From a virus: a stretch of DNA of 39,311 bases. The translations under genes and the position numbers were made by a program. The notes under the pieces are model-generated. The model was not told where the DNA came from and searched no databases. It was given only the letters and a program-made list of their open reading frames with translations. This document shows, in pieces, positions 1 through 39,311 of the stretch; positions within the stretch are counted from its first letter, which is position 1; every line of letters begins with the position of its first letter. The stretch lies in IMG/VR virus record IMGVR_UViG_3300029713_000019. One strand, given 5' to 3'.

Positions 1-117
1 ACATTAAACTTCACTTGTCCTAATGGACTACTTGAGTTTAATGTACTTTGTAGGGAAAAAATAACAATGGATTATCCACACAGTTAAAGAAGGTAAATAT
101 CAAGCGAATTGTCTTTG
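1..117. repeat. 117-bp terminal direct repeat, identical to 39195..39311 (circular-closure overlap)
   Basis: Bases 1-117 are letter-for-letter identical to the last 117 bases of the window; the repeat contains the 3' end of the serine recombinase gene and a ~48-bp imperfect palindrome. Confidence 0.9.
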
Positions 118-1406
118 TGGACGACTATATGATCAATCAAATTTCGCCAAAATATAGCCTTTTGTTTTCTATCGAATTTCTCATAAATTGATGATATATC
201 CGACTCGAGTAAAACATTTAACTTTTCATTCCTTCTGATTACTGCTGCACTTCCATCCGCATCAATTTGTACCAATCTAGAGTTTATGTCGTAAGATTTA
301 TCATCGAACTCTTCTCTTGAAATGTATCCATCGATATATAGTTCTTTGACTCTTTCAAGTTTTTGTTTTAATTTCTTTATTTCTTCCTCGTGGTTTTCCG
401 CAAGATCCTTTTCAGATACTGAAACAATGTTATTTTTGATGACTGTTTTTATATTTTTTAACAACTCTTTTTCAATTTTTTTCTCGCTTTTACAAAAGTG
501 CTGAATGGTGCCACCCTTTACTTTTTTTTGGCATGTGTAATAGTAATTGATATTCTTTCTTATGCGATAATATGAAGACATCCTATGACCACAAACTTCA
601 CAGCGCAATAAGCCGCTGAAAAGATATGTTACATTTTTCTTATTGTTTTTTACATATCTTTCTTTATATACTTTGTTTGCCTCATAAAATGTATCTACAT
701 CTATGATTGGCGGAAAGTAATTATTTATACCTCTGTACTTTCCGATATATTTCTCATTCGCAATGATCTGTTGAACGGTTGACGGGCACATTGGTTTTGA
801 ATACTTTGCAATAACTTCACGTACCGTTTCATTTAGATTTCCACACTGAATATAGGTATCAAAGATAAAGCGAACAATCTCGGCATCGAATTCGTTGATA
901 CACGGCTTTTTTGAACGAACTACGTAGCCTAAAGGCATTTGACCGGTCAATACCTCACCCTTTTTTAGTTTGCTCTCAAACACGTCTAAAATACGCTCAG
1001 AATCCTTTTCAATCTCTCGCTGTGAAAGGGAAACACGCAAATTAAACATAAACATGCCGTCGGCCGTTGATGTATTGATATCGTCTTCGAAAATAGAAAT
1101 GATATACACTTTTTTTTTGTTCAATTCTTGCACGGTCTTGTTTGCATCTAAAACGTTTCTTGAAAATCGGTCCAAACGAGTAAATAGTATGTAGTCACCC
1201 TCATTCGACTCCTCGATCATTTTTAAAAAACTTTTCCTTTTTGTTATGGAAGATGCAGATATACCATTGTCGATATATGTGTTAATCACTGTAAACTGAT
1301 TGTTCTTACAGTATTCTTTAAGTGATGCGATCTGTACAGGGATTGATATGTTCTTCTTTTTCTGTTCTACAGTAGAAACTCTTGCGTATAATCTAGCTTT
1401 TTTCAT
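84..1406 (-). CDS. large serine recombinase (phage integrase)
   Basis: N-terminal resolvase-type catalytic domain (YARVSTVEQ with catalytic Ser); recombinase domain; C-terminal Cys-x2-Cys...Cys zinc ribbon and coiled-coil; 440 aa; first gene of the lysogeny module. Confidence 0.85.
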   Translation of the reverse strand: MKKARLYARVSTVEQKKKNISIPVQIASLKEYCKNNQFTVINTYIDNGISASSITKRKSFLKMIEESNEGDYILFTRLDRFSRNVLDANKTVQELNKKKVYIISIFEDDINTSTADGMFMFNLRVSLSQREIEKDSERILDVFESKLKKGEVLTGQMPLGYVVRSKKPCINEFDAEIVRFIFDTYIQCGNLNETVREVIAKYSKPMCPSTVQQIIANEKYIGKYRGINNYFPPIIDVDTFYEANKVYKERYVKNNKKNVTYLFSGLLRCEVCGHRMSSYYRIRKNINYYYTCQKKVKGGTIQHFCKSEKKIEKELLKNIKTVIKNNIVSVSEKDLAENHEEEIKKLKQKLERVKELYIDGYISREEFDDKSYDINSRLVQIDADGSAAVIRRNEKLNVLLESDISSIYEKFDRKQKAIFWRNLIDHIVVHKDNSLDIYLL

Positions 1407-3877: not shown

Positions 3878-3909
3878 AGTGGATAGCCTAAAATATCCAC
3901 TCCTATTTT
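3878..3909 (+). terminator. rho-independent terminator (AGTGGATA-gcctaaaa-TATCCACT then T-rich tract)
   Basis: Perfect 8-bp inverted repeat followed by CCTATTTTA. Confidence 0.45.
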
Positions 3910-5123: not shown

Positions 5124-5125
5124 AC

Positions 5126-5773: not shown

Positions 5774-5785
5774 AGGTGATGTCTG

Positions 5786-6994
5786 ATGATCTCAGAAAAA
5801 CAGGGAACCCTGGAATATCATCTTGCAGCGATTGCCTGCTTTGACGATAAGTTCATCCAGGACCCGAACTTGAAGATCGAACTGTTCACCAATTCAGGTC
5901 TTAGAGAAATCGTCCGTGTATGCAAGAAAGTTTTTTCTGCCAAGCATACGCTGGCAATGGAAGACATCGTACTGGAATTATCAAAGGAAGGTCTGGAGAA
6001 CACATATATATCGTTGATGGATCATGCATATGAAAAATCAAGGTATGATGATCTGCTGGATCAATTGCAGACAAGCTGGATGATTCGTGAATCATATGCA
6101 AAGCTGGAAAGTGTCAATGCCGAAGAGATCACATTTGATGAATATCAGTCTCAGGTTGCTTCACTTGGTAAGGATTTCAACCTGGGCACAGCGTCCAAAT
6201 GGTCCGAACAGAAGATCCTGGATGAGCTGCAGCGCAAGGAAGAAAAGATCCATTTCAGGAAGATGGCCTTTTATGAAGAGATCGTGGCTCCATCCAAGAA
6301 AACGGTTAACGTGATTGCTGCTAGGACCGGTGTTGGTAAATCGGCCTATGCGTTGAATATCATGAACGATTTGGCCGAGAAGTACAAATGTCTGTACTTC
6401 AACCTGGAGATGACAGAGAAAGAAATCTATCAGAGGTTAATGGCCATCCAAAGTGGTGTTCCGATTCGAAACTTTACTTTTATGAAACAGAATGAATTTG
6501 TTCGATTTCAGGATGCTGCAAAAAGGTTTGATCAAAAGATGAAGGTGCGAATCTATTCAGGGTCCAAATCGATCGAAGGGGTTCGAAAAATCATAGCAAG
6601 AGAATCCAGGAACGAGCATTGCCTGGTGTTTATCGATCATATTGGCTATATCACCAATCGAAAGATCAATAACACACGTGAACGAGTGCAGCAGATCATG
6701 ATCGATCTGAATAATATTTCAAAGGATTTCGATTGTACCATATTTGCGTTAAGCCAGTTGAATCGTAATGCGGATGATTCACCAAAGCTGATCGATCTAA
6801 AGGATTCAGGAGAAGTTGAACAGACAGCTCATTCAGTTGTTCTATTGAATGACTGTACCAAGGATTACTCTGATTCGACACCAAGGTACGAGCTGATCTG
6901 TGCCAAAAATAGAGGTAGGACCGGAAAAAGAGAAGTTGTATTCAACAAAAACAACCAACAGTTTCAGAACTTAAAAGGAGGGCTAGTCGTATGA
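5786..6994 (+). CDS. DnaB-family replicative DNA helicase
   Basis: Walker A AARTGVGKSAYALN, Walker B LVFIDHIGYI, C-terminal RecA-like helicase motifs (LSQLNR); 402 aa. Confidence 0.85.
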   Translation: MISEKQGTLEYHLAAIACFDDKFIQDPNLKIELFTNSGLREIVRVCKKVFSAKHTLAMEDIVLELSKEGLENTYISLMDHAYEKSRYDDLLDQLQTSWMIRESYAKLESVNAEEITFDEYQSQVASLGKDFNLGTASKWSEQKILDELQRKEEKIHFRKMAFYEEIVAPSKKTVNVIAARTGVGKSAYALNIMNDLAEKYKCLYFNLEMTEKEIYQRLMAIQSGVPIRNFTFMKQNEFVRFQDAAKRFDQKMKVRIYSGSKSIEGVRKIIARESRNEHCLVFIDHIGYITNRKINNTRERVQQIMIDLNNISKDFDCTIFALSQLNRNADDSPKLIDLKDSGEVEQTAHSVVLLNDCTKDYSDSTPRYELICAKNRGRTGKREVVFNKNNQQFQNLKGGLVV

Positions 6995-7206
6995 TCGCAA
7001 CCTGCATGAGAGATAAAGCTAAATCCAATGTCCATATCGCATCATTCAAGAACCAGATGAAATATGGTGCCGAGTATGAAGAGGAGATTGTACCAGGGAC
7101 AACGATGCTTTTGATACCGGTGGAAAATGAAGAAATACCGGAAAGTCAAAAATACAGACATTTCATCGTGAATGGAAAGGTATATTCATGCCTTTTCGTA
7201 AAGTAG
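6991..7206 (+). CDS. hypothetical protein
   Basis: ORF coupled to the helicase stop. Confidence 0.4.
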   Translation: MIATCMRDKAKSNVHIASFKNQMKYGAEYEEEIVPGTTMLLIPVENEEIPESQKYRHFIVNGKVYSCLFVK

Positions 7207-8105
7207 GTGATTCGAAGAAAAAAGAAAACTTAAGAAGAAAAATCAATTCTTTTATCGAAGAAGAGATATTCGATGAAAAATCATCCAAAACGATATCTGC
7301 ATATCGCCGTATCCCTTCTGATTTTGTCAATCAACTAAAAGATGGCCAGGAAGTTACAAAAAAAGATCTTTTATCATATAAGGATCATTTGATCAAAAAA
7401 TACAAGCCATCAACGGTTAATGTATATCTTACGATCCTGAATAAATTTATTAAATATTGCGAGGTCGTAGAAAACACAGATGAGTTTGATTTCACGATGT
7501 TGAAAAAACACTATTCAAAAAATGTCGTAAAGAACATTCGTATTCAGGCTCCGGACTCTTTGGACGACATCCTAAATCCATCCGATTTCAAGAGGATGAG
7601 ACGAAAGGCAAAGGAAAAGGGAGACAAGCGAACATATCTCATCTTATCGGTATATGGGTTCACAGGCATCCGCGCAAAGGAAATTGATTTCTTTACAGTG
7701 GATGCGTTAAAAGCATCCAAGGATTTTGTACAGGTGACAAACAAAGGAAAGACACGAAAAGTGCCGGTACCAGGAACATTGAGAAGAGATCTTCTTCGAT
7801 ATGCCAAAGAAAATCATATTGATTCAGGTCCTATATTCAGAAATCCGGATGGACAGCCATTGTCCTATTCCAGGATCTATCGATGTTTGAAAGACCTGGC
7901 AGGAGAATGTAGAGGAATCAAGAAATCAAAGGTACATCCTCACAGTTTTAGACATTTATTTGCTTATTATTTCCTGGAAGGCAATGAAAGCCGATTGGCA
8001 GAACTGGCTGACATACTTGGCCATAGTTCATTAGAAACGACAAGGATTTATCTAAGAACGACGATAAAAATGAAAAAACAAAAAATGGAAAGGATTAGGT
8101 ATTAG
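7188..8105 (+). CDS. tyrosine site-specific recombinase (XerC/D-integrase family)
   Basis: C-terminal catalytic motifs HPHSFRHLFA and LGHSSLETTRIYLR (R-H-R-Y); N-terminal SAM-like core-binding domain. Confidence 0.8.
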   Translation: MPFRKVGDSKKKENLRRKINSFIEEEIFDEKSSKTISAYRRIPSDFVNQLKDGQEVTKKDLLSYKDHLIKKYKPSTVNVYLTILNKFIKYCEVVENTDEFDFTMLKKHYSKNVVKNIRIQAPDSLDDILNPSDFKRMRRKAKEKGDKRTYLILSVYGFTGIRAKEIDFFTVDALKASKDFVQVTNKGKTRKVPVPGTLRRDLLRYAKENHIDSGPIFRNPDGQPLSYSRIYRCLKDLAGECRGIKKSKVHPHSFRHLFAYYFLEGNESRLAELADILGHSSLETTRIYLRTTIKMKKQKMERIRY

Positions 8106-8109
8106 CTTT

Positions 8110-8802
8110 ATGAAGCACATGGTCCAGTTTAGCGGTGGAAAAGATTCTACTGCGATGCTAAAGAAAATGATTGAGCAAAAGTGGGATATAGATGAAGTCG
8201 TGTTTTTCGATACTGGCTGGGAATTTAATGCAATATATCAATCAATCGAAGATATGAGAATTTTTCTCAAAAAGATGGGTATAAAGTTCACAATCCTAAA
8301 GTCTGAAAGATCTTTTGATTACTTGGCTTTTGAAAAAGAAGTTCATAAGCGAAACGGAACCGTCCAAAACGGATATGGATGGTGTGGAGGTTTATGTCGA
8401 TGGGGAACAACAGAAAAACTGAAAGCATTGGAACGTTACTGCAAAGGAGAAATTGAATATGTTGGTCTTGCCTTTGATGAACAAAAAAGAATACAAAAGG
8501 AAAGAAAAGGTATCAAAGTTTTTCCTTTAAACGATTGGAAAATGACAGAAGCAGATGCATTGCAGCATTGTTATGAAACAGGAACACTTTATGAAGAACA
8601 TGGTTTCAAATTATATGACATTCTTGATAGAGCTTCCTGCTTCTGCTGCGCTAATAAGAACCTGAAAGAGCTAAGAGGTATTTATCGTGATCTTCCAGAT
8701 TATTGGGAAAGGTTAAAGGTTATGCAGCAAAGAACTCCTTGGCTTTATAAAAAGATTGGAATTGATGCATTGGAACATCGATTTGAAGAAGAACTTTTAT
8801 GA
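8110..8802 (+). CDS. PAPS-reductase family (PP-loop ATP pyrophosphatase) protein
   Basis: N-terminal PP-loop FSGGKDS; C-terminal Cys cluster (CGGLCRWG, CFCC). Confidence 0.7.
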   Translation: MKHMVQFSGGKDSTAMLKKMIEQKWDIDEVVFFDTGWEFNAIYQSIEDMRIFLKKMGIKFTILKSERSFDYLAFEKEVHKRNGTVQNGYGWCGGLCRWGTTEKLKALERYCKGEIEYVGLAFDEQKRIQKERKGIKVFPLNDWKMTEADALQHCYETGTLYEEHGFKLYDILDRASCFCCANKNLKELRGIYRDLPDYWERLKVMQQRTPWLYKKIGIDALEHRFEEELL

Positions 8803-9017
8803 AAGGAAGTGAAGATATGAATGAATTAAAACCATGTCCGTTTTGCGGAGGTAAAGTGAAAAAAGCAAAAAATCCATTAACAAGAGCAATATTATTTATT
8901 TGTGATCATTGCGGTGCTGATGTTTGCTTCTATGAAGCAGAACACGATCCAAAAGCAACTGAAGCATGGAACAAACGAATATCATACGATTACGAAGGGT
9001 TTACAGAATGCAAATGA
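8799..9017 (+). CDS. Lar-family restriction-alleviation-like zinc-ribbon protein
   Basis: LKPCPFCGG ... CDHCG ... EAWNKR pattern matches my recollection of the Lar family; not checked against a profile. Confidence 0.5.
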   Translation: MKGSEDMNELKPCPFCGGKVKKAKNPLTRAILFICDHCGADVCFYEAEHDPKATEAWNKRISYDYEGFTECK

Positions 9018-9051
9018 AAGAAAAAATAATTCTTTTGTGTGGAGGAAAATT

Positions 9052-9357
9052 ATGGATTTAAAAACCGATTTTAAAACATATCTTGAATCACATTTTTACG
9101 ATAATAGAAACATACAAAGGAATCGTTGGATTTTTAGATTTAGCGGTAATAAAGGTTTGCTTGTAATATGCAATCTTTACAAAGGTAAAGTTGTATCGTT
9201 TGGTTGCAAGACAGCGCCTTTTGAGGCATATGATATCCATTTTGTTTATGATTATGAAATAAAAAGAGATGGCATGCAGATAACGCGTTGTGTTGGAAAT
9301 TATCTATCAGAAGAACGTATCAATGAAATTCTTCATGAGATGGATAATCAAAAATAG
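9052..9357 (+). CDS. hypothetical protein
   Basis: GGAGG RBS before the ATG at 9052; the ORF-track start 8902 overlaps the upstream gene and lacks an RBS. Confidence 0.45.
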   Translation: MDLKTDFKTYLESHFYDNRNIQRNRWIFRFSGNKGLLVICNLYKGKVVSFGCKTAPFEAYDIHFVYDYEIKRDGMQITRCVGNYLSEERINEILHEMDNQK

Positions 9358-9440
9358 AAAGAAACATTGAATACGAGTTTAACTCGATAAACTAGAAAAA
9401 AAACTCGAATAAATATCAAAATAGGAAAGCAGGTTATTCA

Positions 9441-9623
9441 ATGAAAATATTGTTATTGATTTTGGATTTTATATTTTACAGTATAATTTACTTTTCGATG
9501 AAGTTAGGTCTTGAATCAATTGGGATAACAGGTTTATTGAATTGGATTATCTTAATTGTTTCTATAATTACTTATGATTTAATTAATTATTATTTAGAAA
9601 TCAGGTGGGAGAATGAATATTAA
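9441..9623 (+). CDS. small membrane protein (two TM helices)
   Basis: Highly hydrophobic 60-aa ORF. Confidence 0.35.
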   Translation: MKILLLILDFIFYSIIYFSMKLGLESIGITGLLNWIILIVSIITYDLINYYLEIRWENEY

Positions 9624-9918
9624 GTTTTATGCACCTAAAGAGGAAGTAATTCCTACTAGATTAAGGTTAATGGTTGACGGAAAACAGGTTGATTATAAAA
9701 GAGTTGATAATGAATTTGCTTATGATTTTCAATTTTATGATACAGAAGTAAATGAATGTTTTGAGATTGCAAGGGAAATATCAAAAATCATGTGTTCACA
9801 GTCTAATGACCACGGTGCTAGATGGGTAGTAACTGATATTTCTCTAGTAGAGCAAGAAGAACGATATTCTGTTGGAGTGATTGTACGTGTTGATTTTAGG
9901 ATTAGAGATAGTTATTGA
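9613..9918 (+). CDS. hypothetical protein
   Basis: ORF in a co-directional early gene array. Confidence 0.45.
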   Translation: MNIKFYAPKEEVIPTRLRLMVDGKQVDYKRVDNEFAYDFQFYDTEVNECFEIAREISKIMCSQSNDHGARWVVTDISLVEQEERYSVGVIVRVDFRIRDSY

Positions 9919-9943
9919 TAGCAGGTGGAAGCATGATTAAAAA

Positions 9944-10162
9944 ATGACGAATAGAGAATACTTAATATCTCAATTAAATGATGAAGACTTTATCGATGAT
10001 GGTGGGGCTAGCTATGAAGCAACGATTTATAACAGTATTTCTTGTCCTTATCTTCTCGGAGATAAAAGAGCCTTATGCAATGATGTTTCTATAGATAAAG
10101 TTGATAGAGATATGTGTTTTAGATGCAAAGAAAAATGGTTGAATAGTGAAGTTGATGAATAA
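9944..10162 (+). CDS. hypothetical Cys-containing protein
   Basis: ORF. Confidence 0.4.
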   Translation: MTNREYLISQLNDEDFIDDGGASYEATIYNSISCPYLLGDKRALCNDVSIDKVDRDMCFRCKEKWLNSEVDE

Positions 10163-10318
10163 AGGTGAAGAATGAAGAAATACATTGAGTGGTTTATAAA
10201 TTATGGGTTTGAAATTCTTTTAATCTCTATATTCGGAATTATGATGCTTTTAGGAATTATTGGAATAATAAGTTTATTCGTTTTAATTAAAATGATTTTT
10301 TAGAAAGAAGGAGGAAGT

Positions 10319-10702
10319 ATGAAAATTGAAACATATTTATCAAAATTAATGGACATTTTTCCAGATAGTTTTATAAACCGTTTAAATGAACTTATTTTGA
10401 TTCCTGAAACAAATTTATATTTTCGTTTAAACGATGTTGAATCTGAATTTGACGTTAAATGTAAGCTTCTTGAATGGTGTTCCAGAGATGCAACAAAGGC
10501 AATGCCTTATCAAATCGATAAAAGAAACAAAATTTACCAAGATATAGTTCGTGTAAGAATAAATAAGTATCTTGGAACTAATTTCAATAGAGAACAAATG
10601 GAAGTTATTTATTGTGAACTTGGAAATAAAATCAATCATTCTCTAACAATTAAGTTCATTGAAAATAGTTATGATTTTAATGTTTTTGAGGTAGAAGAAT
10701 GA
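10319..10702 (+). CDS. hypothetical protein
   Basis: GAAGGAGGAAG RBS before the ATG. Confidence 0.45.
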   Translation: MKIETYLSKLMDIFPDSFINRLNELILIPETNLYFRLNDVESEFDVKCKLLEWCSRDATKAMPYQIDKRNKIYQDIVRVRINKYLGTNFNREQMEVIYCELGNKINHSLTIKFIENSYDFNVFEVEE

Positions 10703-10881
10703 ATGAGCAAGGATCATTATCAAGATTATCTTCAAAATGCAGGAACTGTAGATATGTTAAAACCTGTAATCATAAGAAGATGGAAGCATTAGCGTATTTA
10801 CTACCAACAATAAATAATTTAGAAAATTCAATAGTTCAACAAATAGCAAGGAAAAGAAAGGTTAAATATAGGTAAAATATA

Positions 10882-11373
10882 ATGTTAACAAATGAAGAAA
10901 TAAATAAATTAAATGAAATTAGTATGATGCAGGATAAACTAGATGAAGAAATTTTAAAAGTTCATGAATGCAATTTTGATTTAGAAAAATCAAAGCTTGC
11001 CTTAATTGATGAACTTGGTGAAACAAATCATGAGAATAAAGCTAATTGGTGCTGGTGGAAGTTTACTCAGGAACCTGTTAACAAGTCAAAGCTTTTAAAG
11101 GAATTAGTTGATTGTTGGCATTTTGCTATGAGTATTTATAACCATACAAGAACAGATATGGATATAAAAAGAAATGTTAAAAGTTATGAAGTTGAAAAAT
11201 ATCAAAGATATGAACTTTCAAAATTAATAGCATGGGTAATATTAAAAACAGAAAATATTTTAGCTATCATGATTGCAATTACGAATAAACTAGGTTTTAC
11301 AATTGATGAAATTTATACAGCATATGTTGCAAAAAATAGAGTAAATTATGAACGTTTAAAAAATGGATATTAA
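10882..11373 (+). CDS. dimeric (all-alpha) dUTPase-like nucleotide pyrophosphatase
   Basis: Motifs ALIDELGE, WCWWK, ELVDCWHFAMS and C-terminal YTAYVAKNRVNYERLKNGY resemble the dimeric dUTPase family (Y..K..N..R...GY). Confidence 0.55.
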   Translation: MLTNEEINKLNEISMMQDKLDEEILKVHECNFDLEKSKLALIDELGETNHENKANWCWWKFTQEPVNKSKLLKELVDCWHFAMSIYNHTRTDMDIKRNVKSYEVEKYQRYELSKLIAWVILKTENILAIMIAITNKLGFTIDEIYTAYVAKNRVNYERLKNGY

Positions 11374-11403
11374 AAAATAATTTTTTGAAAGAGGAGAAGA
11401 AAA

Positions 11404-11808
11404 ATGATAAATAAAGCCGTTTTGATTGGACGACTAACTAGAAGTATTGAAATAAGAAAAACACCTTCTGGCACAAGTGTATGCGACTTTACTTTGACAG
11501 TTAATAGAAATAAACAGGTAGAAGGTCAACCAGATGCTGATTTTATAGGTTGTATAGCTTGGAACAAGACTGCTGACCTTATGTTCCAATATCTCCACAA
11601 AGGTTCATTAATTGCAGTTGAAGGAAGAATACAAACAAGCTCATATGATAATAAAAAAGGCGAAAGAGTATATAAAACTCACGTAGTTGCAGAAAACATT
11701 CAATTTTTAGAACCAAAATCTAATGATAAATATACGAATGATGAAGATATAACAATGCAGGCAGAGAAAGAATCATCATATATAAGTAATGAAGATCTTC
11801 CTTTTTGA
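11404..11808 (+). CDS. ssb: single-stranded DNA-binding protein
   Basis: OB-fold SSB N-terminus (MINKAVLIGRLTRSIEIRKTPSG ... DFIGCIAWNKTADL ... VEGRIQT) and acidic C-terminal tail ending DLPF. Confidence 0.9.
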   Translation: MINKAVLIGRLTRSIEIRKTPSGTSVCDFTLTVNRNKQVEGQPDADFIGCIAWNKTADLMFQYLHKGSLIAVEGRIQTSSYDNKKGERVYKTHVVAENIQFLEPKSNDKYTNDEDITMQAEKESSYISNEDLPF

Positions 11809-11866
11809 TTCTGTATATGTATATTTAGACAGATTTTATAAGTAATTCAAAAGAAGGAGGAAAAAC

Positions 11867-12247
11867 ATGAAAAAAATAATATCAGTCATTTTACTTAGTT
11901 TATTGTTGGTTGGATGCTCAGAGGCAGATCGTGTATCGCATAATTTATCACAGGAAGCAGACAATTTTAACGATGTTAGACAAATTACTGTAATGAATTG
12001 CCTAAAAGGTGAAGTTCTGTTCCAAATGACTGGGAAAATGTCAATTTATGCAGATACATCAGACAATCAACTTGAGGTTACGGTCGAAGACGAGAATGGA
12101 GAATACAAAAAACATTTTATTGGTCTATCAGATAACGTTACATATGTAATAGAAGATATTACGACTGGGGATGTTAGCAAATATAAATACACTTTGAATT
12201 TCAATCCAAACATGGTCATTCCATTTGACGCGGAAACAATCGATTAG
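11867..12247 (+). CDS. lipoprotein (signal peptide plus lipobox LLVGC)
   Basis: MKKIISVILLSLLLVGCSE; strong GGAGG RBS; candidate surface-exposed exclusion or moron protein. Confidence 0.6.
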   Translation: MKKIISVILLSLLLVGCSEADRVSHNLSQEADNFNDVRQITVMNCLKGEVLFQMTGKMSIYADTSDNQLEVTVEDENGEYKKHFIGLSDNVTYVIEDITTGDVSKYKYTLNFNPNMVIPFDAETID

Positions 12248-12260
12248 GAGGAAATAGACG

Positions 12261-12635
12261 ATGACTAATTTAGAATGGGTAAAAAATAATTTTAATAGGC
12301 TTGAATTATCTAATGATGATTTATTTTGTGATATTGCATTTATATCTAAAACTGGTAAAAGTTGCGTGGAGTGTAAAGGAACATGCTGTAGTGAATGCCA
12401 ATTTAGAAATATTAGACGTGCAATAGATTTTCTTTTACAAGAACGCAAAGAACCAATCAAATTAAAAAAATGGGAGTATGACCTGATACGAACAAATGAT
12501 CACTCACATGAAAATTTATTTTATACTTTTGCCACGTATAGGAATATGAAAAGAGTAGGACATTTTTCAGGCATTAAAGATACATCAATGACTCTTGAAG
12601 AAATCCTGAACAATTGTGAGGTAGTGGATGATTAG
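12261..12635 (+). CDS. hypothetical Cys-rich protein (CVECKGTCCSEC)
   Basis: ORF with AGGAGG RBS. Confidence 0.45.
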   Translation: MTNLEWVKNNFNRLELSNDDLFCDIAFISKTGKSCVECKGTCCSECQFRNIRRAIDFLLQERKEPIKLKKWEYDLIRTNDHSHENLFYTFATYRNMKRVGHFSGIKDTSMTLEEILNNCEVVDD

Positions 12636-29509: not shown

Positions 29510-30937
29510 ATGGATATTAAAGTATATAATGACCGTCGCGTAAGACCTACGTTTATTACTGTGGCTAATCAACATGAGAATATGACAAGGACAATTGATT
29601 TTGATTTTATTGATTGTATGCAAGGGCATCGGTATTTGATATTGACAATAGATGGAAAATCAACCCCTTTTTTAATATTAGGAGACAAATTGAACATCAC
29701 ATCTGTAATAAGTCAGAATAACGTTAAATATCTCGCAAATATTGTTATTTCGGATAAAGAGATAACAGATCGTATCGATCCAGATAACATTCTTTTTATT
29801 TCAGATACATTTTATATAAAAATTCAAGGGAATGATATCAATGTGAAGGAAATTTCTGAGTTTCCGATACCACCAGAATTACAACTTCCATATGATGAAT
29901 TACTTGATCTTATCGAGGAAATTGATCATAAACTATCTGATGGAGAATTTAATGGAAAATCAGCATATGAAATAGCAGTTGAAAACGGATTTGAAGGAAC
30001 AGAGGAAGAATGGTTAGAAAGCCTTAGATATGACCATTCAGACGAATTCGAAAAACTAGCAGAGCAAGTGAAACAAGACGCTCAATCGTCGGCGGAAAAT
30101 GCCTCGAAAGCGGAACAAGCCATGACCCAAGCAAATCAAACCGCACAAGCCAATCTGGAGGCTATACAAAGCGCTAGCAAAACCGCGCAAAGCGATATCA
30201 GTACAGCCAAACAGGACGCGGTAAATGCGGTAGAACAGGCTCAGAAAGATGCGGAACAGTCTATAGCTACAAAGCACAGTGAAGCCGTACAAGCGGTAGA
30301 ACAAGCACAAAGCACAGCTGAAACCGCAATCAACGCGAAACAAGCTGAATCTGTAAATGCGGTAGAAACAGCTAAAGAGGAAGCGACAAAGGCAATCGAA
30401 ACGGGAAAAGCCGAAGCCGTGGAAGCTATAACGACCGCTAAAGATGAAGCAATAGAGGAAATCGAAAACACGGGTGTACCGCTTGAAGATATTGAGAAGT
30501 TAGCGATAAAGGAAACCGCCGAGGGCAATCCAACGATTATCAACGATAGCGCAGACTGGCGATTGCAGAATTTAAATGTGTACGGTCAAAGTGAACAAGC
30601 AAGTACAACAGGGGCTCAATTATTAGATTCTAGTTTATTTGAATCGAATGATATCACTAAAAACGGTATTCGTTTTGTTAAAAATTCGGATGGAAGTATT
30701 TCAGTCAGTGGTACATCAACAGGATTTTCAACGTACAATCTTGGTTTAAATCGATTAGAAAACGGTACTTATTTCATAAATGGTTCAAAAAATAATACCT
30801 ATGTTTATATGTATATTAAAAAAACAAATGGTGAAAGCTATATTGAAAATAATTCTTTTACTATTGATGGTACAGAAACTTTAATTACAGTTTATATACA
30901 AATAAACCCTGAAATGCTATTATTTATCCAATGTTAA
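29510..30937 (+). CDS. tail fibre protein with Ala/Glu/Gln-rich coiled-coil repeat region
   Basis: About 22-aa periodic repeats (AVEQAQ.., AVQAVEQAQ.., NAVETAK..) encoded by a locally GC-rich segment (about 30060-30540). Confidence 0.5.
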   Translation: MDIKVYNDRRVRPTFITVANQHENMTRTIDFDFIDCMQGHRYLILTIDGKSTPFLILGDKLNITSVISQNNVKYLANIVISDKEITDRIDPDNILFISDTFYIKIQGNDINVKEISEFPIPPELQLPYDELLDLIEEIDHKLSDGEFNGKSAYEIAVENGFEGTEEEWLESLRYDHSDEFEKLAEQVKQDAQSSAENASKAEQAMTQANQTAQANLEAIQSASKTAQSDISTAKQDAVNAVEQAQKDAEQSIATKHSEAVQAVEQAQSTAETAINAKQAESVNAVETAKEEATKAIETGKAEAVEAITTAKDEAIEEIENTGVPLEDIEKLAIKETAEGNPTIINDSADWRLQNLNVYGQSEQASTTGAQLLDSSLFESNDITKNGIRFVKNSDGSISVSGTSTGFSTYNLGLNRLENGTYFINGSKNNTYVYMYIKKTNGESYIENNSFTIDGTETLITVYIQINPEMLLFIQC

Positions 30938-32016
30938 ATTTAGGAAATACAGCTAAACCTTTTGAACCATACACAGGCGGTAAACCTTCCCCTAGTCCTG
31001 ACTATGAACAAGAAATAATTTCAAAAGAAGTAAGTGAGATTAAGTTTACTGGTAAGAATTTATTCAATGTGGAATGGATAAAAGGTTTGAATACGTATGA
31101 AAATCAAAGTAAAAATGTAGCACGTTTGCCAAAAGGTAAATACACTTTAAAGGTTCATGGGTTAACGGAAGCTGACCTAAAAAGTGGTTCTTATTTTGCA
31201 ATTAGAATAAAGGTTGGAGATACATATACAAATACATATTGGATAATGCATCCAGGCACTCCAAATACTAAATGCTTAACAGGACTTAAATTCGATATCG
31301 TTAACGATTTTGAGATTAATTTGTATATCTATAATAACACAGAAGAACAGCTTCAATACGCATATGATACTTTAAATGGGCATATACAAATAAATAATGG
31401 TTATGAAGAATCCCAATTTGAACCATACAAAGAGCAAGTCGTCAATCTAACTTCGCCAATTACTTTACGAGGCATTCCAGTAGATAATGGTGGAAATGTA
31501 ACAATAGACAGACAACAGTATGTAGCTGATGTAATCACAGAAAAGGACGGAGTTATTGGGGTTGTAAGGAATGCAGAAAGCTTTAGTTTATTGATTAAAG
31601 ACATGAATAACAACGATAGTTATCCAGGTTGGAAAGGCTTAGACATTGTTGAGAAAATTCTTCCACCGCAAGCTAATGATACACAAATTCCTACTTGTTT
31701 ATGCACTATTCAAAGTCGAGTGATTTATGCTCGCCGAGATTTCAAGACTATATATTTCACGTATGATGAGCTTGGAAAAAATCAAACAGAATTGAAAGAA
31801 CAATATCCTGATTTGAGTGTCAATTTTATAGCCATAAATTATCAACCAACCTTTGAACCACTACCAGAAGCCGACCAAGAAGCAATCAGAAAGCTAAAAA
31901 CATTCTATCCAAATACTGTGATAGACGCTAATTGCTTTACGAAGATAAAATATGTAGCAGATACAAAGTTATATATTGATAAAAAAGTACTAGATGCTAT
32001 ACAGGAGGTTATATGA
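30931..32016 (+). CDS. tail fibre / receptor-binding protein
   Basis: 361 aa, beta-rich; overlaps neighbours by a few nt. Confidence 0.45.
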   Translation: MLNLGNTAKPFEPYTGGKPSPSPDYEQEIISKEVSEIKFTGKNLFNVEWIKGLNTYENQSKNVARLPKGKYTLKVHGLTEADLKSGSYFAIRIKVGDTYTNTYWIMHPGTPNTKCLTGLKFDIVNDFEINLYIYNNTEEQLQYAYDTLNGHIQINNGYEESQFEPYKEQVVNLTSPITLRGIPVDNGGNVTIDRQQYVADVITEKDGVIGVVRNAESFSLLIKDMNNNDSYPGWKGLDIVEKILPPQANDTQIPTCLCTIQSRVIYARRDFKTIYFTYDELGKNQTELKEQYPDLSVNFIAINYQPTFEPLPEADQEAIRKLKTFYPNTVIDANCFTKIKYVADTKLYIDKKVLDAIQEVI

Positions 32017-32453
32017 GTTTATTCAAATTTAAGTCAAGAGGAAAAATAAGACAAATGGTCGACCTGGTATATCCGGTCGGCTCTATTTATATTAGCACTG
32101 CTGCGACGAATCCAGGAACCTTGTTTGGTGGTACTTGGGAAGCGTTTGCACCTGGTCGAGTTTTGATCGGTGCCGGTCAAGGAGATGACGGTACTACAAG
32201 TATGTCTTTTACTGCTCTGGGAGAGTATGGTAACTATCAACATAAATTAACGATAGATGAGTTAGCTAGGCACAAACATAATTACGCTCCTTCATGGGTT
32301 ACTCAAAGTCAATCAAATACAGGCATATTTGGTATGGCAGGAAGTGACGAAAATTATACCTACGGTGGGGGTGTTGAATATGTAGGAGAAAACACTCCAT
32401 TTGATATCATTCAGCCTAGTATATGTGTGTTTATGTGGAAACGCATATCTTAG
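32013..32453 (+). CDS. receptor-binding tip protein with invertible C-terminus: 63-aa constant region fused in frame to MSFT cassette 1
   Basis: Constant N-terminus (PVGSIYISTAATNPGTLFGGTWE) up to codon 63; codon 64 onward (MSFTALGEYGNY...IQPSICVFMWKRIS) begins exactly at the 13-bp repeat TATGTCTTTTACT (32201-32213), which recurs at the start of five downstream promoterless cassettes. Confidence 0.6.
   Translation: MSLFKFKSRGKIRQMVDLVYPVGSIYISTAATNPGTLFGGTWEAFAPGRVLIGAGQGDDGTTSMSFTALGEYGNYQHKLTIDELARHKHNYAPSWVTQSQSNTGIFGMAGSDENYTYGGGVEYVGENTPFDIIQPSICVFMWKRIS
32201..32213 (+). repeat. shufflon crossover repeat 1 (TATGTCTTTTACT), inside the expressed gene
   Basis: 13-bp core shared by six sites; flanking 25-30 bp also similar because of the conserved MSFT(A/S)LG(E/T)YG coding. 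Confidence 0.7.
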
Positions 32454-32459
32454 TTTATG

Positions 32460-32472
32460 TATGTCTTTTACT
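32460..32472 (+). repeat. shufflon crossover repeat 2 (TATGTCTTTTACT)
   Basis: Identical to repeat 1 core. Confidence 0.7.
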
Positions 32473-32712
32473 ACTTTGGGTACTTATGGAAAATACGATC
32501 ATATTCTAAATGTAGATGAAATGCCTAATCACGCTCATAATATACCTGCGCTTAATTATGAAGTTCAAGAACATGGTGGAAGCGGAATAGCTTCTCATAA
32601 AATAACTGAACCTGTTGATCAAATGCAACCTACATCATATGAAGGTAAAAACAAATCGTTTAGTCTAATTCAACCATCAATTGCAGTAAATATTTGGAAA
32701 CGAACAGCGTGA
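32461..32712 (+). CDS. silent alternative C-terminal cassette 2 (MSFTTLGTYGKY...IQPSIAVNIWKRTA)
   Basis: Begins at repeat TATGTCTTTTACT (32460-32472); conserved N-terminal and C-terminal motifs, variable middle with HAHN motif; no RBS of its own. Confidence 0.5.
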   Translation: MSFTTLGTYGKYDHILNVDEMPNHAHNIPALNYEVQEHGGSGIASHKITEPVDQMQPTSYEGKNKSFSLIQPSIAVNIWKRTA

Positions 32713-32718
32713 TAAAAG

Positions 32719-32731
32719 TATGTCCTTTACT
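32719..32731 (+). repeat. shufflon crossover repeat 3 (TATGTCCTTTACT)
   Basis: One mismatch to repeat 1. Confidence 0.7.
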
Positions 32732-33025
32732 TCTCTAGGAACATATGGAAAATACAAGCATCAGCATAATCCTGGAACACTTGGAGCAGACTGGAACCAT
32801 TTCGTAAGCGGCAACCGAATGTATATGGATTATCGAGAAATCAATAATGGAACAAATTATCCCGAGAACATGCGACTCTATATTGGATCATCAGATTTAC
32901 AGTCAATGAACGATCGAACTGATAATGAAACAAATGCATCTCAAATTGGGATATCTGGCAAAACTGAAAATACAGATAATATCATGCCTGGCATTGGTGT
33001 ATATATGTTTATACGAACCGCTTAG
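32720..33025 (+). CDS. silent alternative C-terminal cassette 3 (MSFTSLGTYGKY...IGVYMFIRTA)
   Basis: Begins at repeat TATGTCCTTTACT (32719-32731). Confidence 0.5.
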   Translation: MSFTSLGTYGKYKHQHNPGTLGADWNHFVSGNRMYMDYREINNGTNYPENMRLYIGSSDLQSMNDRTDNETNASQIGISGKTENTDNIMPGIGVYMFIRTA

Positions 33026-33026
33026 G

Positions 33027-33039
33027 TATGTCCTTTACT
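33027..33039 (+). repeat. shufflon crossover repeat 4 (TATGTCCTTTACT)
   Basis: Same core. Confidence 0.7.
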
Positions 33040-33291
33040 GCCAATTCTAAAGGTGGGTTATATAAGGCTCCTTTAGAAGTTGAGAACATTCCAGATCATC
33101 GCCATGACCAGTTTCAACACTATGATGGACAGGCAGATACAAGTACTTCTTACATATGTAATAGCGCTGTCTGGTCCTATGCAGCAAAAGAAAGTTATTC
33201 GACAGGAGACATAACGAACAAAGAAACAACAACACCTCACTCTAATATCCAACCTTATATTGGAGTATATATGTGGAGAAGAGTTAGTTAA
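33028..33291 (+). CDS. silent alternative C-terminal cassette 4 (MSFTANSKGGLY...IQPYIGVYMWRRVS)
   Basis: Begins at repeat TATGTCCTTTACT (33027-33039); HRHD motif. Confidence 0.5.
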   Translation: MSFTANSKGGLYKAPLEVENIPDHRHDQFQHYDGQADTSTSYICNSAVWSYAAKESYSTGDITNKETTTPHSNIQPYIGVYMWRRVS

Positions 33292-33532
33292 CTCTCTTCC
33301 ACATGTTAACAACGATATAAGGATTTTGAATGTTTATAGCATCGTTGTTACAGTTTTCTCCACCATTGGTTGTACCATAAGTGGCGTTTGTTCCTGATCC
33401 AATTTGTGATCTATCTCCAGCACCGGCAATCATTAAAGGTCCACCCATACCTGTATGTGTGTGCTGTGGCAATTGAGATTCCAATAATTTAATTAAATAA
33501 TTTCCACCTTCTGCTCCAGACGTAAAGGACAT
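33284..33532 (-). CDS. silent alternative C-terminal cassette 5, inverted orientation (MSFTSGAEGGNY...IVVNMWKRVN)
   Basis: Starts at inverted repeat (reverse complement of 33521-33533 = TATGTCCTTTACG); HTHTG motif. Confidence 0.5.
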   Translation of the reverse strand: MSFTSGAEGGNYLIKLLESQLPQHTHTGMGGPLMIAGAGDRSQIGSGTNATYGTTNGGENCNNDAINIQNPYIVVNMWKRVN

Positions 33533-33533
33533 A
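33521..33533 (-). repeat. shufflon crossover repeat 5, inverted (TATGTCCTTTACG on minus strand)
   Basis: Plus-strand CGTAAAGGACATA. Confidence 0.7.
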
Positions 33534-33540
33534 CATTAGC

Positions 33541-33801
33541 TTATGCTGTTCTTTTCCAAAAATATACAGATTTACTTGGTTGTATGTTCTCATGTGGTTC
33601 ACCATTCCCACTATCATTGGTTATATATGCATCATTAGTATTACCAACATTATTCATAATAGGCACAACATATGTAGAACCGCCCATTGATGCATTTTCT
33701 ACTTTTTTATACTGACTCGGTGTATGATGATGCTTTCCGTTTTGCTCAGATGTTAGCGAAACCTTATATTTACCATATTCACCAAGAGCTGTAAAGGACA
33801 T
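33541..33801 (-). CDS. silent alternative C-terminal cassette 6, inverted orientation (MSFTALGEYGKY...SVYFWKRTA)
   Basis: Starts at inverted repeat (reverse complement of 33790-33802 = TATGTCCTTTACA); HHHT motif; abuts the recombinase stop. Confidence 0.5.
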   Translation of the reverse strand: MSFTALGEYGKYKVSLTSEQNGKHHHTPSQYKKVENASMGGSTYVVPIMNNVGNTNDAYITNDSGNGEPHENIQPSKSVYFWKRTA

Positions 33802-33802
33802 A
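33790..33802 (-). repeat. shufflon crossover repeat 6, inverted (TATGTCCTTTACA on minus strand)
   Basis: Plus-strand TGTAAAGGACATA. Confidence 0.7.
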
Positions 33803-34717
33803 CTAATGATCATAGTAATCTGCTAACAGTTCAACACACTTTCTTTTTAGTTCAAGTTGAGGATGAACATATAAATTCATTGTGATTGACACATTTGAGT
33901 GTCCTAAAAGCTCAGATAGGCTTTTGTAGTCGCATCCACATTCAATGCATCTTGTAGCAAACGTATGTCTTAGCGAATGGAACTTTCTATGTGGTAAATC
34001 TAGATCCTTAAGTTGACGATTGTAATAGAGCCTGTATTTATTAGGTTCTATATATTTTTCTTTTCCTGTAATGATATATTCGTTTTCTGATCCACGCAAT
34101 AGTACAGCGTATTGCATGATCCACTTATTTAAAGGAATCGTGCGTATGCTAGAACGTGTCTTAGGTGGTGTGATATTCAGTTTTGATCCATCTTCCTTAG
34201 TGTATGTTCGTATCATCGTTTTATTAATATGTAAAAGTTGAGTGTCGAAATTAATATCAGACCATCTAAGAGCACAGAGCTCACCTATACGCAAGCCGGT
34301 GTGAATTGTGAGCAATATGCCAAAGTTCTTATGACAGATATTAGATTGGAGGGAATTAATCAATGCTACTTGATCTGATTTTTCAAAAATCTCTACCTCC
34401 TTAGACGGAGAATAAGGAAGCTGTATTTCTACTTCTTTTCCTAAAGTAAGTTTTAATACAGTGATAATGTCTTGAGCGTATTTTTGAGAAATACCTCCTT
34501 TTCCATCGCATCGACCTTCCTTTAATCGATTCAAAATGAATTCTTGAAGTATGTCATTATTCAATTGATCTACTTCATAATTTCCAAGATTAGGAATGAT
34601 TTGGTTGTGTGAGATATTACAGTAGTTTGTAAATGTAGAATATTTCAGATAAATCTTTTGGTTTTTTAACCAGTCTAAAACTAGATTTTTGTATAGCATG
34701 AGAGCACTTCCTTTCAT
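33803..34717 (-). CDS. tyrosine recombinase (Rci/shufflon-type DNA invertase candidate)
   Basis: Catalytic motifs HSLRHTFAT and LGHSNVSITMNLYVH (R-H-R-Y); convergent with and abutting the cassette array, the arrangement of rci next to the R64 shufflon. Confidence 0.8.
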   Translation of the reverse strand: MKGSALMLYKNLVLDWLKNQKIYLKYSTFTNYCNISHNQIIPNLGNYEVDQLNNDILQEFILNRLKEGRCDGKGGISQKYAQDIITVLKLTLGKEVEIQLPYSPSKEVEIFEKSDQVALINSLQSNICHKNFGILLTIHTGLRIGELCALRWSDINFDTQLLHINKTMIRTYTKEDGSKLNITPPKTRSSIRTIPLNKWIMQYAVLLRGSENEYIITGKEKYIEPNKYRLYYNRQLKDLDLPHRKFHSLRHTFATRCIECGCDYKSLSELLGHSNVSITMNLYVHPQLELKRKCVELLADYYDH

Positions 34718-34747
34718 GCTTTTTATTTTATAGAAAGAGGTAAGAAT

Positions 34748-35497
34748 ATGAGTGAAGAAGTTAAGAACAATGAAGAGATCTATAATGATGATCCAATCTA
34801 TGAAGAACCTTCAAAAAACATCAAAATCGGTGATCTAGATATCACACTTTGCAATGAATTGATCCAGGAAATCAATGATAATCTAAACATCACATTTGTT
34901 TGTGAATCTGAAATCGATGTTATTCAAAATGCGTTCGAAGCAAACAAGAATCCTATCGTGTATGGTGATGATTCTTATAATGGTTATACCATTATTGATG
35001 AATTTGGTTATAAGGTAGATAAACAAGATAAAACTATTTATCGCATTACTTTATCCAAACCAGAAGGAGAAGAACCGGAAGGTGGCTTAACACAAGAACA
35101 GGCATTTGCCATTGCATATGCAATTCCTTTGATGACAAATGATCAAATCTTACAATGTGTATCTGTATTGACTGAATGGAAAGAATTCATTGGTGGAAAG
35201 ATGGAAGCTAACCAAAGATTCCAATTCAATAAAGAGGCATGGGAATCAAGACAAGAAATTCCGGTTGTTTTAGAAGGGCAAGAACCTGGAATCAACACTG
35301 CAGCACTATATCAGAGAATTGAAAGTTCACATGCAGGAACCAAAGAAGATCCTATTCCATATTCACAATTGATGTGCGTATATAAAGATAAATATTATAC
35401 AGAAAATGGAGTCTTATACCTTTGTTTAGAAGATAGTGAACAGCCTCTATACGCATCATGCGAATCCGTCCCACGTTATCTTCAAAAAGCTGAATAG
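34748..35497 (+). CDS. hypothetical acidic protein
   Basis: 249-aa ORF with AAAGAGGTAAG RBS. Confidence 0.5.
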   Translation: MSEEVKNNEEIYNDDPIYEEPSKNIKIGDLDITLCNELIQEINDNLNITFVCESEIDVIQNAFEANKNPIVYGDDSYNGYTIIDEFGYKVDKQDKTIYRITLSKPEGEEPEGGLTQEQAFAIAYAIPLMTNDQILQCVSVLTEWKEFIGGKMEANQRFQFNKEAWESRQEIPVVLEGQEPGINTAALYQRIESSHAGTKEDPIPYSQLMCVYKDKYYTENGVLYLCLEDSEQPLYASCESVPRYLQKAE

Positions 35498-38984: not shown

Positions 38985-39198
38985 AATATTCAGATAAATC
39001 GATTTTCTCTCTTGATCCATCGTCTTTGATTCCAAACACTTCTATCCTGTTAATATTATTAGGCCCAATCTTATCTAAAAATAAAGATAGATCTTCAGGC
39101 TTGATTTCAATTTCCAATTTTATCACCTCCTGATTAATAGTGTAGTGATCAAATCTTACAAAATCCTGACATTTTGAGATAAATTTAAAAAAGTACAT
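38959..39198 (-). CDS. hypothetical protein (79 aa), first gene downstream of attP candidate on the minus strand
   Basis: ORF ending 4 nt inside the terminal repeat. Confidence 0.4.
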   Translation of the reverse strand: MYFFKFISKCQDFVRFDHYTINQEVIKLEIEIKPEDLSLFLDKIGPNNINRIEVFGIKDDGSREKIDLSEYLKKLDHLV

Positions 39199-39240
39199 TA
39201 AACTTCACTTGTCCTAATGGACTACTTGAGTTTAATGTAC
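39193..39240. other. candidate attP for the large serine integrase (48-bp imperfect palindrome; second partial copy at 1..46)
   Basis: GTACATTAAACT (39193-39204) and its exact reverse complement AGTTTAATGTAC (39229-39240) flank an inner GTCC-TAAT-GGAC palindrome; the site lies immediately 3' of the serine recombinase gene; size and imperfect dyad architecture are typical of serine-integrase attP sites. Confidence 0.4.
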
Positions 39241-39311
39241 TTTGTAGGGAAAAAATAACAATGGATTATCCACACAGTTAAAGAAGGTAAATATCAAGCG
39301 AATTGTCTTTG
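39195..39311. repeat. second copy of the 117-bp terminal direct repeat
   Basis: Identical to 1..117. Confidence 0.9.

Follow-up and report, generated by a model that had tools for sequence, protein, structure and literature searches.

A putative shufflon for exchanging the C terminus of a tail-tip protein in a temperate phage of gut Erysipelotrichaceae

We analyzed the IMG/VR virus record IMGVR_UViG_3300029713_000019, a stretch of 39,311 bp that we refer to as the window, with particular attention to a tail-tip gene, the array of short repeats and promoterless gene segments (cassettes) that follows it, and a tyrosine recombinase gene that bounds the array and may invert its parts. The first 117 nt of the window (1-117) are repeated exactly at 39195-39311, so that the window is a circular assembly and probably the complete phage genome, of ~39.19 kb. 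Its G+C content is 35.8%, and Pfam matches show that it has a tail module of the siphovirus type along with genes for a holin and a CHAP/GH25 lysin. The phage is temperate and siphovirus-like and infects human-gut Erysipelotrichaceae (Bacillota). The features of the locus are collected in the table below.

The tip gene is an open reading frame (ORF; 32013..32453) of 146 aa that overlaps the stop of the upstream tail gene and is preceded by GGAGG at 32001-32005, the only good ribosome-binding site. As the first-pass annotation of this DNA had stated, the ATG of the first repeat (core 1) is codon 64 of this gene and lies in frame, so that the gene is divided into a constant 5′ part and an expressed cassette. 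The ATG in each of the other five cores opens an ORF of 82 to 101 aa, and no Shine-Dalgarno sequence was found before any of these five silent cassettes, again as had been described. The six cassettes are mutually 30 to 41% identical and have hypervariable middles. Common to all of them are an MSFT..G.Y start, an xP..V..(W/F)xR end and an HxH, the last of these being shifted in cassette 3. The motifs first given for the cassettes were therefore right as to a common start, a common end and the HxH, but slightly too narrow; cassette 4 begins MSFTANSKGGLY, cassette 5 begins MSFTSGAEGGNY, and cassette 3 finishes IMPGIGVYMFIRTA.

Against the Pfam family Gp10_C (PF21939), the 146-aa protein matched over residues 15 to 145 (8.5e-25; 88.7 bits, with a cut-off of 27), a match that crosses the junction and therefore places the recombination site inside a single domain. 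When the 63 constant residues were joined in silico to cassettes 2 to 6, each of these virtual fusions covered Gp10_C positions 1 to 139 of 139 (63.8 to 96.7 bits, same cut-off). For the expressed protein and the five virtual fusions together, the full-length Gp10_C E-values ranged from 4e-17 to 3e-27 (3.1e-24 for cassette 2 and 1.3e-23 for cassette 6), which answers the earlier suggestion that the cassettes be compared with tail-tip domains by hidden Markov model. The 146-aa protein also matches, by sequence, the structure of the T4 gp10 C-terminal domain (2fkk) in its N-terminal strands and its last strand, and its PHROG matches are to tail, tail-fibre and baseplate families. An AlphaFold2 monomer model built from 51 homologues was poor (predicted local distance difference test [pLDDT] score, 62), and Foldseek searches against the PDB gave only weak gp10 matches (E 0.015); we have left both results unused and limit the structural argument to the Pfam and PDB sequence matches. 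From this homology, the position of the gene at the end of the tail module, the PHROG matches and the hypervariable middles, we infer that the 146-aa protein is a receptor-binding tip and that switching would alter host range.

The cores themselves stand out clearly from the background. A scan with the pattern TATGTCYTTTAC, in which up to one mismatch was allowed, returned six matches in the 39,311-bp window, every one of them exact, compared with 0.62 expected by chance; six matches were reached in 0 of 100 dinucleotide-preserving shuffles. All six cores fall between 32200 and 33803 (1.6 kb), four of them direct and two inverted. The six shared repeats reported initially, with these orientations, thus proved exact upon realignment. 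Their coordinates held for the direct copies and were one base off for the two inverted copies (33522-33533 and 33791-33802), and alignment of the flanks of the six sites showed that the invariant 13-bp block, GTATGTCYTTTAC, begins one base further left than the pattern first used. A logo built from 154 distinct sites reads A-N-G-T-A-T-G-(T/A)-C-N-T-T-T-A-C-N-N-C. The cassette side of the site is moderately conserved because it encodes MSFTxxxxGGxY, and the opposite, cassette-upstream arm is not conserved in silent sites. The only dyad symmetry found around the core is GTA/TAC, flanking a 7-bp center; this, together with the unconserved upstream arm, makes the site asymmetric. The variable eighth base of the core consistently tracked neither the cassette type nor the left flank, and the crossover point could be resolved no finer than the 13 to 17 nt of shared sequence. 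In distant Gp10_C homologues, a loop of varying length and sequence occupies the place where the window's clade has an invariant SMSFT, and SMSFT is confined to that clade. The invariant peptide would thus reflect a DNA constraint laid over a tolerant loop.

The recombinase gene converges on the array and its stop abuts core 6, as the first-pass annotation had it. Its product consists of a SAM_3 domain and a catalytic domain and nothing else (298 to 304 aa), with no arm-binding domain, and carries the full RKHRHY catalytic hexad (R143, K186, H247, R250, H273 and Y283). A start at 34699 (298 aa) is favored by gene callers and by an AAGGA Shine-Dalgarno-like motif and is likely the true one; an exact look-up of the 304-aa protein failed because gene callers use the shorter form. 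The enzyme scores below the cut-off of every NCBIfam model, the Xer-like models scoring best, and its best database matches carry integrase or Xer names. Its nearest solved structure is the Tn1549 Int core (6emy). The adjacent enzyme is nevertheless distinct from the phage's own integrase, which is likely the 440-aa serine enzyme at 84..1406; the latter sits 32 kb from the array and is the only serine recombinase, and the only Resolvase-domain protein, in the window. The phage therefore has two recombinases that serve different ends, a serine enzyme and, as the second, the tyrosine enzyme, and the contrast drawn earlier with serine-invertase switches is upheld, as is the separation of this enzyme from the integrase. 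Among related loci, the end of the recombinase match is followed within 3 to 29 nt by the first core in 46 of 48 cases. Presumably, the window's recombinase catalyzes the inversions, although the link between enzyme and core is a putative one.

Features of the tail-tip locus and of the genes discussed with it (L numbers, related loci; P numbers, database proteins)
Feature	Position	Strand	Evidence
Constant 5′ part of tip gene, 63 codons, N-terminal part of Gp10_C domain	32013..32201	+	ORF list; Pfam
Core site 1 (GTATGTCTTTTAC), within expressed gene, its ATG being codon 64	32200..32212	+	Pattern scan, site alignment
Cassette 1, 83 aa + stop, now fused to constant region, expressed	32202..32453	+	ORF list; silent inverted copies in L001, L083
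Core site 2	32459..32471	+	Pattern scan, site alignment
Cassette 2, 83 aa, silent, direct	32461..32712	+	83%-identical cassette fused to constant region in P0007
Core site 3	32718..32730	+	Pattern scan, site alignment
Cassette 3, 101 aa, silent, direct	32720..33025	+	Expressed in L003, L051, P0015, P0018; silent inverted in L001
Core site 4	33026..33038	+	Pattern scan, site alignment
Cassette 4, 87 aa, silent, direct; end overlaps cassette 5 end by 8 nt	33028..33291	+	90%-identical in P0009/L082
Cassette 5, 82 aa, silent, inverted	33284..33532	-	Fused to constant region at core in L001, P0011/L083
Core site 5 (inverted)	33522..33534	-	Pattern scan, site alignment
Cassette 6, 86 aa, silent, inverted, directly 3′ of recombinase stop	33541..33801	-	ORF list; virtual fusion
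Core site 6 (inverted); begins with the G of the recombinase stop codon, TAG	33791..33803	-	Pattern scan, site alignment
Armless tyrosine recombinase, putative invertase, 304-aa ORF	33803..34717	-	Pfam Phage_integrase (PF00589) 1.6e-25 + Phage_int_SAM_3
Terminator-like hairpin + T-run on the tail-gene strand, overlapping recombinase start codon region	34695..34720	+	Consensus scan only
Two tail-fibre-like genes, 475 + 361 aa, 5′ of tip gene	29510..32016	+	PHROG tail-fibre matches for 475-aa protein
Large serine recombinase, 440 aa	84..1406	-	Resolvase + Recombinase + Zn_ribbon_recom (Pfam); phrog_95 integrase 3.4e-97

Taking these features together with what is found in relatives, we think it very likely that the locus is a multiple-inversion switch, or shufflon, for the C terminus of the tail tip in a temperate Erysipelotrichaceae phage. 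In reaching this view we count as demonstrated the anatomy of the locus, the occurrence of alternative fusions and inversion isomers in relatives, the purifying selection on silent cassettes and the presence of a separate integrase. In the mechanism that we propose, the late tail operon would express only the constant part and whichever cassette follows core 1. The recombinase would synapse core 1 with an inverted core and flip the DNA between them, and a different cassette would thereby come into frame behind the constant half; core 1 with core 5 would yield the constant region fused to cassette 5, and core 1 with core 6 would yield the fusion to cassette 6. Either of these inversions would turn cassettes 1 to 4 into inverted copies, so that a further inversion could then reach any one of them. 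Inversion at other inverted pairs would reorder the array, and all six cassettes should be reachable in no more than two steps. Late transcription would probably run antisense through the array and the recombinase gene and stop at the 34695-34720 hairpin.

If such inversions take place, related phages should carry the same cassettes in other arrangements, and this is what we found. A scan of IMG/VR with the recombinase gave 56 loci, and a scan of GTDB genomes gave five further loci in Erysipelotrichaceae (Holdemanella, Floccifex, one metagenome-assembled genome [MAG] with two loci, and "Firmicutes bacterium M10-2"). Relatives hold the window's cassettes (83 to 98% identity) at other positions, in other orientations and in other fusion states, with the breakpoints at the core. 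L001, whose recombinase is 96% identical, has cassette 5 (91 to 92% nucleotide identity) fused to its constant region, with the breakpoint precisely at the core, and cassettes 3 and 1 are inverted beside the recombinase, the silent copy of cassette 1 being 98% identical at the nucleotide level and frameshifted. An inversion of the core 1-core 5 type would be expected to leave this arrangement. In L003, the constant region is fused to cassette 3. L051 (3949-4349; also L148 and L153) carries a recombinase cut after residue 106 and has lost cassettes 6 and 5 and most of cassette 4; it is a locked derivative with a fixed fusion of the constant region to cassette 3. L083 holds a silent cassette 1 of the window type (96% nucleotide identity). 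Further fusions were present among database proteins, in which constant regions 88 to 98% identical to that of the window stand in frame with window-type cassettes: type 2 in P0007 (cassette identity, 83%), type 3 in P0015 (91%) and P0018 (95%), type 4 in P0009/L082 (90%, with a constant region 98% identical) and type 5 in P0011 (94%). The prediction that successive inversions would expose cassettes 2 to 4 is thus matched by fusions of type 2 (P0007), type 3 (L003, L051, P0015 and P0018) and type 4 (P0009), and the prediction for inverted cassettes is matched, in the case of cassette 5, by L001 and P0011.

The wider family shows the same behavior. A catalogue across 57 loci comprised 167 complete cassettes in 86 clusters (≥85% amino acid identity), 14 of which occur both fused to a constant part and silent. 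Arrays contain from two to eight cassettes, with a median of three (the expressed one counted), so that the window's six lie at the rich end. Two pairs of loci bear directly on the inversion switching first proposed, and both agree with it. L033 and L041 are collinear save for a 586-bp segment inverted between two cores and are clean inversion isomers. The most telling pair is L010 and L012, from two separate samples, whose sequences are 99.97% identical over 3.28 kb, including the recombinase, and part 7 nt past the recombinase-adjacent core. There the remaining tail of L012 equals, in 56 of 56 nt, the cassette that L010 carries in its expressed fusion with the constant region. The difference between them is the product expected of one inversion between the outermost sites and attests to recent switching in the family. 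In most relatives (loci L005 to L049), the constant region is the C terminus of one tail-fibre protein of 530 to 900 aa, and a separate 146-aa tip gene with its own ribosome-binding site occurs only in the window's lineage (the window, L001, L003 and L051). L083 (ENA ERZ28615237 scaffold_1115, 1-12438) carries the tip gene, array and recombinase, with a cassette-5-like fusion and the silent cassette 1, on a different backbone (SPP1_Dit, Sipho_Gp37, a collagen-repeat protein and another holin type). To judge from these sequences, the shufflon module appears to be exchanged between phages. A megablast search of the region against GenBank phages gave no match.

The silent cassettes also bear the mark of use. 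Intact ORFs with a conserved C terminus are headed by 119 of 130 silent sites, and the rest are mostly contig ends or off-array chance matches. The ratio of nonsynonymous to synonymous substitution rates (dN/dS), pooled by the Nei-Gojobori method within cassette clusters with the first 12 codons skipped, was 0.18 alike for silent-silent (123 pairs), silent-expressed (89 pairs) and expressed-expressed (16 pairs) comparisons, pairs which are not phylogenetically independent. The silent cassettes are nonetheless plainly maintained in working order under the same purifying selection as expressed ones, and such selection requires their occasional expression. The four loci with a truncated recombinase (L047, L050, L051 and L052) have 0 or 1 silent cassettes, compared with a median total of three. 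In addition, 14 of 53 related contigs end within ~1 kb past the recombinase stop, and three MAG contigs end 18 to 99 nt past it; these contig ends fit the behavior of assemblers at repeats of mixed orientation, which is suggestive but not proof.

Several points nevertheless weigh against this reading. About 10 assemblies contain the exact sequence, and all are in the window's arrangement; the two that were checked were 100% identical across the array. When metagenome and viral contigs were scanned for alternative junctions on the window's own constant-region allele, no exact one was found, and scans with degenerate positions returned only diverged relatives, namely, copies of the L001, L003 and L051 arrangements. 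Switching in this strain may thus be rare, selected against or lost. For cassette 6, the relatives yielded no counterpart in expressed form, so that the other half of the prediction for inverted cassettes found no match. Deletion between the four direct copies would have to be avoided, and L082, in which the constant region is joined to cassette 4 and cassettes 1 to 3 are absent, resembles such a deletion product. Lastly, the receptor-binding role rests on homology to a T4 gp10/gp12-type domain and on gene position, the structural model being a poor one (pLDDT 62).

One rival explanation is that the locus evolved as an inversion switch and, in this phage, is now a fixed tip gene followed by fossil cassettes, with flipping that happens never or very rarely. 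The ~10 independent assemblies with identical proteins and a single arrangement speak for this, as do the assembly of the genome as an unbroken circle through the array (with its 117-nt terminal overlap) and the existence of locked derivatives in the family, such as L051 with its truncated recombinase. However, the window retains six exact cores, six intact cassettes and a full catalytic hexad; assemblers report the majority orientation, so that a minority of flipped molecules would go unseen; and the 99.97%-identical L010 and L012 testify to recent switching in the family. We therefore regard a frozen array as unlikely, and the intact parts of the locus, together with the state of its relatives, point to active switching in this strain.

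A second explanation is that cassettes are exchanged through general homologous recombination or gene conversion between coinfecting phages and that the recombinase serves dimer resolution or a second integration. The module is indeed mosaic and found on another backbone in L083, cassette starts can be mosaic, and the best matches of the recombinase are named integrases or Xer. Yet the breakpoints lie at 13 to 17 bp of identity, which is too short for RecA-type exchange, and the cassette-upstream flanks are not conserved. Nor would this explain why, in 46 of 48 loci, the last site directly adjoins the stop of the recombinase; the phage, moreover, already owns a serine integrase, and the enzyme at issue has no arm-binding domain, like Rin (the invertase of a phage shufflon discussed below) and Xer-type enzymes. 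We consider this explanation very improbable. Least credible of all, and in our view safely set aside, is the idea that, far from being silent segments of a gene, the cassettes are each translated on their own into a small protein, such as a decoy or an alternative subunit of the tip. Although every cassette starts with ATG and is under purifying selection, and although translational coupling is conceivable where direct cassettes begin 2 to 10 nt past the preceding stop and cassette 6 begins 1 nt past the recombinase stop, no Shine-Dalgarno sequence precedes any of them, each makes up only the C-terminal part of one Gp10_C domain, the inverted ones are antisense to the late operon, and the same cassettes are fused to the constant part in relatives.

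Some further observations concern the surroundings of the array and the relatives of its parts. Because cassettes 4 and 5 converge and each ends with the code for the conserved C-terminal strand, their ends make up an imperfect palindrome of 34 nt (33253-33322; 76% complementary, 2-nt gap) that might serve as a hairpin in both directions. A gene for a conserved 249-aa protein of unknown function (phrog_30034; 34748-35497, plus strand) is located in the gap between recombinase and holin, and L083 has a 250-aa gene at the equivalent place, despite its different tail backbone. This gene may belong to the shufflon module. In the database proteins P0006, P0033 and P0042, the constant region is broken at or just past the SMSFT junction by a frameshift or deletion; these may be products of imprecise recombination or assembly chimeras across mixed orientations.

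Distant homologues of the recombinase (31 to 39% identity) were considered as further tail-cassette shufflons and were rejected, since they were not flanked by tail cassette arrays. The nearest homologues outside the family (34 to 39% identity) are the recombinases of three human faecal phage contigs, L144 (MT837341, 1063-2502), L145 (MT835594, 1576-2996) and L146 (MT836186, 4599-6009), in each of which the recombinase gene is bracketed by inverted repeats of 24 to 29 nt that are 97 to 100% complementary. This suggests that the gene lies within an invertible or mobile segment. In L063 (Bacteroidales RUG720, 1966-10583), a 37%-identical recombinase is flanked on its two sides by inverted copies of a 750-nt sequence (78% complementary), each of which encodes an outer-membrane-like protein of 245 aa and adjoins a gene for a ~1000-aa coiled-coil lipoprotein-like protein; this may be an inversion locus of another kind, outside phages.

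In practice, it is chiefly host range that limits both the use and the understanding of gut phages, and the present locus would be a compact natural answer to it, with six tail tips in 1.6 kb of DNA. The phage group infects common human-gut Erysipelotrichaceae (Holdemanella and Floccifex), in which the switch is widespread (more than 56 viral contigs and 86 cassette types). Its parts would make a small engineering kit, in which a recombinase of ~300 aa acts at a site of 13 bp and a constant scaffold accepts cassettes of ~85 aa. The switch also offers an explanation for problems of annotation and assembly, the recombinase being labeled an integrase and contigs breaking just past it. Finally, the equal dN/dS of silent and expressed cassettes provides a simple, sequence-only test for active shufflons that is applicable elsewhere.

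How the locus relates to known systems may be considered part by part. The target domain resembles the T4 gp10 C-terminal domain (PF21939; 2fkk), in that the whole profile is matched and the N-terminal strands and the C-terminal IQPYI.VY.W.R strand align. Unlike T4 gp10, the domain here is a stand-alone protein of 146 aa (or a fibre cap in relatives), and its middle is hypervariable and exchangeable. Phage-encoded inversion of the DNA for tail protein C termini is itself familiar from Gin, Cin and Min, which are small serine invertases that act with an enhancer and Fis and whose segments also carry matched chaperone genes. The adjacent enzyme in the window, by contrast, is a tyrosine recombinase, its cassettes are of ~85 aa, and its array contains no chaperone genes. 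The inversions of Gin (Mu), Cin (P1) and Min (p15B) exchange tail-fibre C termini and affect host range, Min being a multiple-inversion system (PMC6109161). In hsdS type I restriction loci, which are known from Streptococcus pneumoniae and many other bacteria, a tyrosine invertase of the PsrA/CreX type is found (PMC7672463; PMC9881135). There, too, an adjacent tyrosine recombinase inverts partial gene copies in Bacillota and so changes the specificity domain of the expressed gene, but the target protein and the repeat structure differ, and no PsrA-type NCBIfam model matched the window's recombinase at E ≤ 0.01.

The first-pass annotation took the R64 shufflon as its model, and as an analogy this stands. 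In R64/IncI1, too, a tyrosine recombinase brings about multiple inversions, by which alternative C-terminal segments of a protein for surface recognition come to follow a constant N terminus, and both systems have asymmetric sites with one arm conserved and the other not. Such asymmetry, with a conserved and a nonconserved arm, is a property of the R64 sfx sites. By descent, however, the likeness fails. In comparison with the R64 sequence (NC_005014), Rci has 384 aa and aligns with the window's enzyme only over 176 residues of the catalytic domain (23% identity), its C-terminal extension being absent here, and the 19-mer sfx repeat, GTGCCAATCCGGTNNNTGG, is unrelated to the window core. Moreover, rci is codirectional with pilV, whereas the window recombinase is convergent, and the target in R64 is the type IV pilus adhesin PilV, encoded on a plasmid, in place of a Gp10_C phage tail protein.

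What the R64 model overlooked is a direct precedent among phages, the Rin shufflon of Bifidobacterium breve and Bifidobacterium longum prophages reported by Mavrich et al. in 2018, with what is described as the first phage-encoded tyrosine invertase (PMC6109161). It comprises the rin tyrosine invertase, a constant part termed Rc, cassettes termed Rv and rix sites of 11 bp; prophage as well as virion sequences yielded variants, and the layout is experimentally supported (PMC6109161). A Rin-type shufflon with an 8-bp site was described in 2022 in clade 1 prophages of Eggerthella lenta (PMC8778435). The window's locus shares with Rin a constant 5′ part of a tail gene followed by small promoterless 3′ cassettes in both orientations, a short asymmetric repeat that heads every cassette (with one repeat within the expressed gene), and a convergent tyrosine recombinase that bounds the array, lacks an arm-binding domain and is separate from the phage integrase. 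The question of how deletion between direct sites is avoided has been raised for Rin as well (PMC6109161). Using the published 11-bp rix site as a spaced pair, we fetched 60 IMG/VR contigs (L084 to L143), whose loci have rix sites in both orientations and a rin gene that ends ~30 nt from the last site; from these 60 rix-bearing contigs it follows that Rin-type shufflons occur commonly among viral contigs of the human gut, far more widely than in the few prophages known from the literature.

Both recombinases have the SAM_3-plus-catalytic-domain architecture, yet they are 24 to 26% identical, no closer to each other than the window enzyme is to ordinary integrases (29 to 31%). The 13-bp window site, GTATGTCYTTTAC, is unrelated to the 11-bp rix site, TTCCCTAACCC, and differs from the 8-bp ttccgtat. 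No Gp10_C match was obtained for the Rin tail protein, which has been characterized as TP901-1/1358-like, whereas the window's site cuts a single small domain and leaves a constant part of only 63 aa. The hosts are Bacillota (Erysipelotrichaceae) as opposed to Actinomycetota, and the phage integrase is of the serine and not the tyrosine type. That the parts are non-orthologous to those of Rin points to repeated invention. We favor, somewhat more than its converse, the view that the window represents an independently evolved, portable host-range module and not a diverged Rin, one that consists of a recruited recombinase lineage, a 13-bp site in a Gp10_C surface loop and cassettes of 82 to 101 aa on a 63-aa stub, that moves between unrelated tail backbones and that has at its disposal, in gut Erysipelotrichaceae phages, at least 86 types of cassette. 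In that case, tyrosine-invertase tail shufflons would have arisen repeatedly and would be a general, overlooked trait of gut temperate phages.

The literature searched contained no account of a system of this sort from Erysipelotrichaceae phages or those of other Bacillota, and the present locus extends tyrosine-invertase tail shufflons from phages of Actinomycetota to those of Bacillota. Judged from its sequence, it would work like the Rin or R64 shufflon and belong to neither family by descent. The principle has been known since Rin was described in 2018; what is new is the recombinase lineage, the site, the target fold, the host phylum and the occurrence of the module on another backbone as well.

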